This document shows, one piece after another, positions 146 to 1,920 of a stretch of DNA of 7,246 bases. The position numbers and the translations under genes are program-made. The stretch lies in NCBI RefSeq assembly GCF_003334765.1, contig NZ_QOWT01000061.1; one strand, written 5' to 3'. The notes below the pieces were generated by a model. It made no database searches and was not told the origin of the DNA. It saw nothing but the letters and a program-made list of their open reading frames with translations. How positions within the stretch are numbered: position 1 is the first letter of the stretch; every line of letters starts with the position of its first letter. This DNA is from Escherichia coli (GTDB taxonomy: Bacteria > Pseudomonadota > Gammaproteobacteria > Enterobacterales > Enterobacteriaceae).

Positions 146-574
146 TTACTTCACCCAGTCTTCCAGCACCAGGTCAGGCACCCGCTCAAACTCTCTTGTA
201 TTATTCGTCACCAGTATCGCCCCGGCAGCGATGGCGTGCCCGGCAATCGCCGTGTCGTTCGGGACGATTGGCGTCCCGGCCAGCCGCAGTGCCATTTTAA
301 TCTCCGTGGTGGCGTCCACGGCAGCGCGGTCCCAGGGCAGAATGGCATCGAGGCGGGCGCAGAACGCGTCAACCAGCGCAATATGACGCGGTGAGGCTTT
401 CGGGCCGGTGGCGCCGAAACGCATCTCCGCATAGGTGATGGCCGACACGACAATGCGGTGGTTACGCAGCACCGCCTGCTCCAGACGTTTGATCACTGCG
501 GCGGGCTGTTCACGCATAATGAAAGAGCAGATATTCGTGTCGAGCATATAGGTCTTCGTTCGGGTCTGTTTCAC
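146..574 (-). CDS. vapC: PIN-domain toxin VapC (MvpT/VagD-like ribonuclease) of a type II toxin-antitoxin pair
   Basis: 142-aa ORF with PIN-like features: N-terminal MLDTNI motif and a C-terminal TNNTREFERV block that matches plasmid VapC/MvpT as I recall it. The GTG start at 574 overlaps the vapB stop (GTGA). An internal ATG at 547 would give a 133-aa product, the usual VapC size, so the true start may be 547. Confidence 0.9.
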   Translation of the reverse strand: MKQTRTKTYMLDTNICSFIMREQPAAVIKRLEQAVLRNHRIVVSAITYAEMRFGATGPKASPRHIALVDAFCARLDAILPWDRAAVDATTEIKMALRLAGTPIVPNDTAIAGHAIAAGAILVTNNTREFERVPDLVLEDWVK

Positions 575-801
575 AGGTCAAATCTTCCTTCGTCGCTGAC
601 AATGTCCTCACGCTCCGCCATAAAGTCTGCGTCGGCCTTTTCGAGTGCCGCAAACGAGCTCCAGGTCGGCCGGACCGGGCGCAATATAATGCTGTCTCCT
701 TCGCGGACGATCTCAAGCTCGCTCACCCCCTCAAAATCCAGATCACGGGGCAGACGGATGGCGCGGTTGTTGCCATTTTTAAATATCGATACGGTTCTCA
801 T
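571..801 (-). CDS. vapB: Antitoxin VapB (MvpA/VagC-like, AbrB/SpoVT-type DNA-binding fold)
   Basis: 76-aa ORF immediately upstream of and overlapping vapC. The N-terminal region (VSIFKNGNNRAIRLPRDL) looks like a swapped-hairpin AbrB-type domain, with an acidic C-terminus. A GGGAGAG Shine-Dalgarno sits 6-12 nt upstream of the ATG on the minus strand. Confidence 0.9.
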   Translation of the reverse strand: MRTVSIFKNGNNRAIRLPRDLDFEGVSELEIVREGDSIILRPVRPTWSSFAALEKADADFMAEREDIVSDEGRFDL

Positions 802-960
802 GTTTTTTCTCTCCCGAACAGATGGATATGTGAATCATATCCGGAATATTCAAAGCACCGGGGGTGTGCATATGTTTAGTATAGGCAGATGCTAGGCATC
901 TGTATAGCCGTAGCATATGTAGATGCAAGGCATATGGATATGTTTAGCATATCTATATTT
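802..960 (-). promoter_or_regulatory. Putative vapBC promoter/operator region
   Basis: Perfect 7-bp inverted repeat GGATATG(N5)CATATCC at 824-842, 22-40 nt upstream of the vapB start. Palindrome CAGATGC-TAG-GCATCTG at about 886-902. Several CATATG and ATATGTTTAG repeats between 868 and 952. No exact -35/-10 is assigned. Confidence 0.4.
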
Positions 961-1189
961 CTTTCTTTTTTATCGGAGATCCGAAAAAAGGTAGTCACGG
1001 ATCTTCCTCTCCCGCCGCACAGCGCCATCTCCCGTCAGCACAACATGTAGTGCTGAATTTGGCTGTTAATGACACTATATGTTGTGTCATCTCCCTGACC
1101 TGTGATGCGCCGCGCAGGGGCGGAAAACAGTGATATGATGATTTTCTCAGCGTGGTACACTTCCGGAAAGTTGTGATATTCATGAAAGT

Positions 1190-1394
1190 CGGATCTGACG
1201 GAAACGGGAATGCGATAATTACGGTTTGTTTTTATAAGTCAGATTTTGATTTTTATTGGTTAACATAACGCAAGGTAAAATAAATAATGCTTACTAAAAG
1301 TAAGATAACAGTATGTGTATTTACGCGCTGATTTTTGCATCATAATAATATATACTTATATGCATACCTGAAGTGTGTCAAAAAGAGGTGTACT
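1190..1394 (+). promoter_or_regulatory. Putative ccd operon promoter/operator region (AT-rich)
   Basis: Strongly AT-rich stretch directly upstream of ccdA, with a TTGCAT hexamer near 1335 and TATACT/TATA-like elements at 1350-1365. ccd operons are autoregulated by CcdA-CcdB binding upstream (established knowledge); exact sites are not resolved here. Confidence 0.35.
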
Positions 1395-1613
1395 ATGAAG
1401 CAGCGTATTACAGTGACAGTTGACAGCGACAGCTATCAATTGCTCAAGGCATATGATGTCAATATCTCCGGTCTGGTAAGCACAACCATGCAGAATGAAG
1501 CCCGTCGTCTGCGTGCCGAACGCTGGAAAGCGGAAAATCAGGAAGGGATGGCTGAGGTCGCCCGGTTTATTGAAATGAACGGCTCTTTTGCCGATGAGAA
1601 CAGGGACTGGTGA
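1395..1613 (+). CDS. ccdA: Antitoxin CcdA (F-plasmid type)
   Basis: 72-aa product beginning [72 protein letters not shown], recognised as F-plasmid CcdA. The ORF tool began earlier at a TTG (1335); the ATG at 1395 fits the known protein length. Confidence 0.95.
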
Positions 1614-1614
1614 A

Positions 1615-1920
1615 ATGCAGTTTAAGGTTTACACCTATAAAAGAGAGAGCCGTTATCGTCTGTTTGTGGATGTTCAGAGTGACATTATTGACACGCCCGG
1701 GCGACGGATGGTGATCCCCCTGGCCAGTGCCCGCCTGCTGTCAGACAAAGTCTCCCGTGAGCTTTACCCGGTGGTGCATGTCGGGGATGAAAGCTGGCGC
1801 ATGATGACCACCGATATGGCCAGTGTGCCGGTCTCCGTTATCGGGGAAGAAGTGGCTGATCTCAGTCACCGCGAAAATGACATCAAAAACGCCATTAACC
1901 TGATGTTCTGGGGAATATAA
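1615..1920 (+). CDS. ccdB: Toxin CcdB (DNA gyrase poison)
   Basis: 101-aa product beginning [36 protein letters not shown] and ending [10 protein letters not shown], recognised as F-plasmid CcdB. The ATG lies 1 nt after the ccdA stop, so the two are translationally coupled. Confidence 0.95.

Follow-up and report, generated by a model that had tools for sequence, protein, structure and literature searches.

Two toxin–antitoxin (TA) operons, vapBC and ccdAB, point away from each other within the window, a stretch of 7,246 bp of Escherichia coli DNA (contig NZ_QOWT01000061.1). The block in which they lie is very probably the standard maintenance region of an IncF virulence plasmid, similar to the pAA plasmids of enteroaggregative E. 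coli (EAEC), in which independent modules have been juxtaposed by recombination and the spacer between the two operons holds the rfsF region. The window itself is a chimera, composed of a left part of the type found in plasmid CP088797.1 and a right part of the type found in pLAO63, with the switch at an inverted repeat at positions 977-1004. In mechanism and in regulation, the two TA systems seem to be independent of each other, and their adjacency is best explained by both of them neighbouring rfsF. A maintenance cluster with vapBC and an F-type ccdAB pointing apart is ordinary for this plasmid class and has already been described. There is little new biology in the locus: the genes, the order in which they stand and their contribution to the stability of low-copy virulence plasmids are established, and the locus has been dissected in the pAA plasmid of E. 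coli O104:H4. What is added here is the tripartite spacer with an rfsF mid-region, the ccdA-ccdB-resD run, the recombinant structure of the window, and a VapC allele that retains D98 and carries G95V. The features concerned are the following.

146-547, - strand: vapC, PIN-domain toxin of the VagD type, 133 amino acids from its ATG
571-801, - strand: vapB, AbrB/SpoVT-type antitoxin of the VagC type, 76 amino acids
826-952: VapB operator-like array, six 15-bp palindromes of the ATATG-N5-CATAT type
977-1207: conserved non-coding module (rfsF region), 231 bp, block 2 of the spacer
977-1004: putative rfsF core, imperfect inverted repeat AGATCCGAAAA - AAGGTA - GTCACGGATCT (11-6-11)
1208-1394, + strand: F-type ccd leader, block 3 of the spacer, AT-rich, 28% GC
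1395-1613, + strand: ccdA, antitoxin, 72 amino acids, identical to F CcdA
1615-1920, + strand: ccdB, gyrase poison, 101 amino acids, equal to F CcdB with I56V
1921-2730, + strand: resD, tyrosine recombinase for multimer resolution, with matches to tyrosine-recombinase hidden Markov models

An earlier sequence-only reading of this DNA had described two unrelated TA systems back to back at 146-1920, and the limits of that span coincide exactly with the stop codons of vapC and ccdB. The gene identities and the divergent orientation that it gave, with vapBC on the - strand and ccdAB on the + strand, are borne out by the family matches and the sequence. The same holds for its count of five stability functions in about 5.4 kb, as vapBC, ccdAB, resD and two partition systems lie within 5.2 kb (146-5378). 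Its association of such stacking with large low-copy virulence plasmids is also in agreement with the present comparisons, in which the best matches are IncF plasmids of the EAEC pAA type. The closest of these, pLAO63 (an EAEC-type IncF plasmid with AAF fimbrial genes), is ~99.9% identical to the window from position 105 on. The complete vapC-to-ccdB stretch, in the layout vapCB-spacer-ccdAB, is found in at least 79 PLSDB plasmids, and at least 80% of its vapCB-spacer part (window 60-1300) in 335 of 5,426 complete E. coli genomes. The PLSDB plasmids include the pAA of E. coli O104:H4, whose locus of identical layout has been termed "two divergently transcribed TA operons" (PMC11950199).

The recombinant structure emerges from the comparison with two plasmids. 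Relative to CP088797.1, the window has 0 differences in positions 1-995, which take in an IS3 end, vapB, the operator array and vapC with V95. Beyond these positions there are 104 differences up to 2716, beginning at 996-998. Relative to pLAO63, there are 4 differences up to 947 (the last one on the left side being at 947) and only 3 over 948-6241. These difference patterns show that vapBC and ccdAB have different nearest relatives here and are joined within 948-995. The exact recombinant has no match in PLSDB and the complete E. coli genomes, where full-coverage E. coli matches are 96.4-96.6% identical; those E. coli genome matches that reach 99.7% identity begin at position 105 of the window.

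The spacer at which the two parts meet measures 593 bp (802-1394), contains no credible gene, and consists of three blocks with guanine–cytosine (GC) contents of 39%, 50% and 28%. Block 1 (802 to ~976) is common only to plasmids with this vapB (pO26-Vir, an IncI-gamma plasmid). Block 2 (977-1207) matches more than 3,800 plasmids. Those examined include F, ColIb-P9, an IncK plasmid and pO26-Vir, and in each of them an operon ending in a ResD-like integrase gene follows a few hundred bp downstream of the module. All five related plasmids examined have the module linked to an operon for a ResD-type recombinase, and this link holds for both kinds of intervening genes, ccdAB or a gene for a 137-amino-acid protein. 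Block 3 is common only to ccd-bearing plasmids (F, pAA of E. coli 55989), not to IncI/IncK plasmids. Such an arrangement corresponds to the description of the F plasmid, in which "two rfsF sites, then oriV-1, ccdAB, resD" follow from F nucleotide 45922, a position equivalent to about 978 of the window; for RepFIA of the F type, rfsF is placed in the spacer ahead of ccdAB (PMC4398462).

The boundary between blocks 1 and 2 recurs across plasmids. Junctions were mapped in two spread samples drawn from ~3,900-4,200 plasmids, and in both of them the alignment ends pile up at 976-997. Among the alignments in the sample of 60 records, 36 that cover only the right side have their start at 976-997, 7 that cover only the left side stop at 992, 7 further ones start at 960-969 and 4 run through. 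This is consistent with the literature on other plasmid groups, where rfsF has been called a switch point in IncI1 and IncR plasmids and where vagCD adjoins rfsF in IncR (PMC9412624, PMC8004404).

The state of the toxins and antitoxins

All four toxin and antitoxin genes are intact. CcdA and CcdB score 163.7 and 214.2 bits, respectively, above the NCBIfam cut-offs of 100 and 147, and the C-terminus of CcdB (...LMFWGI) keeps W99-G100-I101, of which W99 is required for gyrase poisoning (PMC5065971). An alternative in-frame TTG start of ccdB is present at 1588. In a 2025 study of pAA1070, whose locus is ~95% identical, CcdB proved toxic, CcdA neutralised it, and in a gyrA462 host it had no activity (PMC11950199). 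The proteins of the related plasmid pAA-EA11 differ from those of the window at 2 residues in CcdA and 1 residue in CcdB. According to the literature, CcdA and CcdB repress their own promoter, and degradation of CcdA by Lon leaves free CcdB to trap gyrase (PMC11950199, PMC5065971). By analogy, the CcdA/CcdB complex encoded here would autoregulate from the AT-rich leader, and free CcdB would poison DNA gyrase in plasmid-free segregants.

The ATG of resD directly follows the TAA stop codon of ccdB, with zero gap, and the encoded protein is 95% identical to F ResD over 266 amino acids. It is likely that ccdA, ccdB and resD form one operon with resD as its third gene. According to one report, F ccd and the resolvase gene belong to the same operon (PMC7157771), and the CcdAB of the Salmonella plasmid pSLT controls the level of the downstream resolvase (PMC5065971). 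From the gapless resD and these two reports, addiction and multimer resolution are probably co-expressed.

In the vapBC operon, the antitoxin gene is upstream of the toxin gene, the vapB stop codon lying 23 nucleotides ahead of the vapC ATG. VapB scores 94.2 bits against NF040493 (NCBIfam cut-off 60), also matches VapB chains in the PDB, and is identical in sequence to the VapB of pAA-EA11. The toxin gene has an alternative GTG start at 574, which overlaps the vapB stop codon as GTGA and gives a protein of 142 amino acids. A Shine-Dalgarno-like motif, AAGGAAG, is found ahead of this GTG (548-574 region). Just after it, the window carries a 12-nucleotide in-frame insertion relative to the 138-amino-acid VapC of pO26-Vir and pBone2IncF, seen as VKQTRTKTY-MLDT in the window and VNKTY-MLDT in those two plasmids.

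The PIN domain of VapC is clear (Pfam PF01850, E = 9e-14), and the solved structures that match it best are those of the enteric VapCs of Shigella and Salmonella, such as 9H6A and 3TND. The four acidic residues D3, E41, D98 and E119 align with D7, E42, D98 and E119 of the Shigella VapC. The suggestion that the catalytic-region motifs are intact is therefore supported at the key residues, these four in VapC and W99-G100-I101 in CcdB. By homology, degradation of VapB would leave the VapC nuclease free to stop translation, with initiator tRNA as its most likely substrate.

Several observations weigh against an active VapC with this target. The protein scores 116.3 bits against NF047863, the tRNA(fMet)-VapC equivalog, and 102.2 bits against NF010285, below the respective cut-offs of 140 and 143. 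Since the equivalog cut-offs are missed and the identity to Shigella VapC is 43%, tRNA(fMet) can be named as the target only presumptively. The allele also carries G95V (codon 263-265; V104 in the numbering from the GTG), three residues before the catalytic D98. This is the sole VapC residue that differs from the nearest relative, pLAO63, and at this position the 77 full-length family representatives have Gly (62), Ser (5), Ala (3), Glu (2) or Val (1), among others. The 61-mer with G95V is common to just 1 of the 807 plasmids that carry this stretch, and that one plasmid is CP088797.1, which encodes an identical VapC. Finally, the closest tested relative, the VapC of pAA1070 (D98N and three other differences), is non-toxic.

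These observations raise the possibility that vapBC is here a decayed, non-toxic remnant, a regulator at most, leaving one working addiction system as in pAA1070, and we consider this quite possible, though short of probable. Besides the rarity of V95, it draws on the finding that the VapC133 and VapC142 forms of pAA1070 are both non-toxic, a defect that the authors blame on an active-site residue, N107 (PMC11950199). Position 107 in the GTG numbering is position 98 in the ATG numbering, where the O104:H4 allele has Asn and the window has Asp. The VapC of pAA-EA11 differs from that of the window at four residues in all (G54D, G100E, G104 where the window has V104, and D107N, in the GTG numbering). 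Because the window keeps Asp at D98, the published cause of non-toxicity in pAA does not apply to it, and G54D and G100E are absent as well. Moreover, the reading frame is intact, the identical allele is kept in a second plasmid, and the occurrence of Ser, Ala and Glu at family position 95 shows that Gly is not absolute there.

We thus regard VapC as catalytically intact by the look of its residues, with its toxicity unproven. The sequence-only reading had seen no inactivating mutation in either toxin. That none is evident is a fair statement, to which the rare G95V has to be added, and the activity of vapBC as a stability function is unproven given a substitution at a conserved Gly and a non-toxic nearest tested allele. 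The toxicity of a VapC with D98 present and G95V would show whether the non-toxicity of the pAA VapC is allele-specific.

The origin of the junction at the putative rfsF core

The repeat at 977-1004, which coincides with the recurrent homology junction, is a candidate for the rfsF core. Its arms are conserved among F, ColIb, IncK and pO26-Vir, with a central part that varies, and it agrees with a second-hand description in which rfsF consists of imperfect inverted repeats of 10-14 bp on either side of a 6-8-bp spacer (PMC5587640). At this site, ResD would resolve plasmid multimers, and the region between the TA operons (~977-1207) would in addition act as an inter-plasmid exchange point, so that the vapBC side and the ccdAB-resD side would be inherited and reassorted separately via rfsF.

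Two points weigh against this picture. The placement of the core rests on breakpoint statistics together with the second-hand description, and palindromes at 1035-1089 could be the true ResD sites. In addition, the interval of the switch, 948-995, is identical in both presumed parents, which homologous recombination would fit too.

The latter point leads to the explanation that general homologous recombination, or rearrangement by insertion sequences (IS), made the vapBC/ccdAB junction and the chimera, rather than ResD acting at rfsF. We judge this to be rather unlikely. An exchange dependent on RecA would leave the same trace in an interval shared by the two parental types, IS elements are present at both ends of the window, and ISEc45 truncates the same spacer at 1063 in the pAA of E. 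coli 55989. Homologous recombination should, however, scatter the junctions across the whole 231-bp module, whereas the F, ColIb, IncK, IncI-gamma and (from the literature) IncR backbones all break in the same ~20-bp stretch at the inverted repeat. Because junctions from unrelated backbones cluster in one stretch, the site-specific route is favoured, with ResD as the putative maker of the junction. The window is in this respect a clean natural example of two addiction systems that are inherited independently and re-paired at the rfsF region.

A wider proposal is that ResD and rfsF constitute a cassette-exchange point that shuffles addiction modules among unrelated backbones, the window being the product of a recent exchange, absent from PLSDB and the complete E. 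coli genomes, that brought a VapC of catalytically intact appearance, with D98 where the dead O104:H4 allele has Asn, next to a functional F-type ccdAB-resD operon. This is speculative, and we consider it improbable as it stands. If true, a TA module on each side of rfsF would be selected, each recombination product keeping its own addiction system.

Two other positions in the spacer were considered as the exchange point and rejected. The palindromes TCAGCAC-AACATGTA-GTGCTGA (1035-1056) and TGACAC-TATATGTT-GTGTCA (1070-1089) of block 2 are kept on both sides in all rfsF-bearing plasmids, with unbroken homology there; they are possible accessory or ResD-binding sites. The break at 1063 relative to the pAA of E. 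coli 55989 was rejected as a crossover, as ISEc45, of the IS110 family, abuts it. In that plasmid, which is without vapBC, ISEc45 lies between the two conserved palindromes; the putative rfsF core has been removed and ccdAB-resD left.

Within the module, the window is nearer to ColIb/IncK (nearly 100% over 1000-1207) than to F. A third CGGATCT arm is present at 1190-1196. This copy (TCGGATCT, 1189-1196) lies 11 bp before a second recurrent boundary at 1207, and in F the arm holds a BamHI site. Position 1207 is where the F-type sequences, with ccdAB, and the IncI-type sequences, with the gene for the 137-amino-acid protein, part from each other. That protein, WP_000465034.1, replaces ccdAB between the rfsF module and the resD-like integrase in IncI/IncK plasmids; it has no NCBIfam or Pfam family match.

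Control elements in the spacer

In block 1, the palindromes of the array start at 826, 870, 887, 904, 921 and 938, five of them in a 17-bp register. A search of the window for the palindrome pattern gives 10 matches, versus 3.7 expected, and 7 of the 10 cluster in 789-952; the array is supported further by the repeats D1-D4 and I2-I4. A weak promoter-like pair is found within the array on the - strand, with the -35 at 906-901 and the -10 at 883-878. We infer that 826-952 is the VapB operator/promoter, and by homology VapB would probably repress its own - strand promoter by binding to these palindromes.

On the other side, the ccd leader has promoter-like sites at 1260-1288 and 1320-1349, as well as overlapping palindromes (I7 and I14) at 1341-1362, just upstream of ccdA. 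From the F literature (PMC4398462, PMC5065971), block 3 would be the counterpart of F oriV-1 and the ccd promoter-operator. The promoter scan counts against this assignment of control elements, as its yield is not above the shuffle expectation (4 found, 2.7 expected), and its sites are to be taken as leads only.

Between the promoters predicted for vapBC (878-906) and for ccdAB (1260-1349) lie at least 350 bp, which bears on the view of the spacer as a single intergenic region serving both operons. The gap is gene-free and divergent, as had been described. On these predictions it has no shared promoter or operator and is instead a three-part mosaic with the rfsF region. It is very improbable that the two TA operons form one co-regulated divergent unit, with VapBC and CcdAB complexes binding a common control region and influencing each other's transcription in the manner of the cross-talk between par1 and par2 in pB171. 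The distance of at least 350 bp applies to the palindrome sets as well as to the predicted promoters, the 231-bp module in between is conserved irrespective of either TA system, the halves occur apart (vapBC with the 137-amino-acid gene and resD in pO26-Vir, ccdAB with pifC in F), ccdAB lies next to an IS element without vapBC in the pAA of 55989, and the two halves of the window have different nearest relatives. Overlapping promoters and operators of the pB171 par1/par2 type are not found for vapBC and ccdAB among the predicted elements. On the side of a shared unit are the gene-free gap itself and, in principle, a coupling of divergent promoters via supercoiling. It was also raised for pAA1070, as a suggestion, by the authors who characterised that locus (PMC11950199). 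We predict that the spacer is not a shared control region, and it should be annotated as the rfsF/oriV-1 region.

Candidate genes within the spacer were examined as well. A 62-amino-acid open reading frame (ORF) at 995-1183 on the - strand was rejected as a gene, as it has no family match and is interrupted by stop codons in both F and pO26-Vir. The PGAP annotation of several plasmids includes a "hypothetical protein" of 159 amino acids across the vapB-ccdA spacer, overlapping the vapB start. It has no counterpart ORF in the window and is probably a spurious call over the rfsF region. An Rfam scan of the whole window at E <= 1 gives a noise match only (CrcZ, 16.7 bits versus a gathering threshold of 95), with no known small RNA in the spacer.

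Related plasmids, partition loci and window ends

The closest described counterpart is the locus of the O104:H4 pAA plasmids (pAA1070, pTY2 and pAA-EA11), whose four genes are the same and likewise divergent, with a spacer about as long and identical alternative starts (VapC133/142 and CcdB101/110), and which is 94.9% identical over 146-1920. In pAA-EA11, the downstream partition genes are of another type and no IS3 lies beside vapC. The right part of the locus corresponds to the rfsF-oriV-1-ccdA-ccdB-resD order of F RepFIA, with CcdA identical, CcdB one residue off and ResD 95% identical, and 430 bp upstream in F are homologous to window 963-1391 at 85.6%. The left neighbour in F is pifC, in contrast to vapBC in the window. 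The left part corresponds to IncR plasmids and to pO26-Vir (IncI), in which vapBC is immediately left of the rfsF module with the same operator array. Their recombinase operon is without ccdAB, and pO26-Vir has the 137-amino-acid gene, of no known family, in its place. The pO26-Vir VapC is the 138-amino-acid form, without the 12-nucleotide insertion of the window.

The same two TA families occur on the low-copy virulence plasmids pINV of Shigella (MvpAT, a VapBC, with CcdAB) and pSLT of Salmonella (VapBC2 with CcdAB-ST). The pSLT ccdAB also heads an operon with a resolvase gene, rsdB; its CcdB is inactive (W99R), whereas the window keeps W99, and vapBC2 is located inside trbH. The ParR of the window matches pB171 StbB. 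Its VapC is just 43% identical to the pINV VapC, being of the VagCD type and not of the pINV MvpAT type.

A further parallel is provided by TA pairs of Tn3-family transposons, in which the TA operon lies between the recombination site and the recombinase gene and is perhaps co-expressed with the latter, as here; the authors describing them name F ccd-resD as a parallel (PMC7157771). Those cases are transposon modules, mostly with serine resolvases, whereas the window has a tyrosine recombinase in a plasmid backbone and a second TA system across the site.

The remaining maintenance functions and the left end of the window are the following.

1-104, - strand: IS3 left end; terminal repeat ending at 104, orfA start codon at 39-37, abutting the 3' flank of vapC
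2868-3781, - strand: par2-type operon, with a small ParA ATPase (3137-3781) and a 91-amino-acid partner (2868-3143)
4010-5378, + strand: par1-type operon, with ParM (4010-4981, from the annotation in pLAO63) and ParR (4986-5378)

The divergent par operons resemble the double par locus of pB171 (par1 ParMR and par2 ParAB) and lie outside 146-1920. ParR matches the pB171 StbB structure (PDB 2JD3) over its full length, with 270 bits and 130 of 130 residues. The small ParA scores 117 bits against ParA_partition, under the cut-off of 180, and the annotation of pLAO63 agrees with a partition operon. The 91-amino-acid ParB-like partner and ParR have no NCBIfam match. The 228-bp gap between parA and parM (3782-4009) is the positional counterpart of the shared centromere/promoter region of pB171.

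Positions 1-104 are a 100% match to an IS copy in pLAO63, in which the homology of the vapC flank begins at 105, and CP088797.1 has an annotated IS3 transposase at the same vapC-flank junction. IS3-family elements at 1-104 and 6604-7243, both with their transposase genes on the - strand and hence in direct orientation, bracket the maintenance cluster. The left element is IS3 proper, and 41 bp separate the end of its terminal repeat from the stop codon of vapC; the right element has, in pLAO63, an end that is only 92.6% similar to the left one. Relative to pLAO63, a deletion of ~1,979 bp is present at 6240/6241, taking the whole of umuD, a dinI-like gene and the 5' portions of umuC and of a DUF1281 gene. 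Its remnants are a 253-amino-acid C-terminal fragment of UmuC (5410-6171, - strand) and a fused ORF at 5864-6532.

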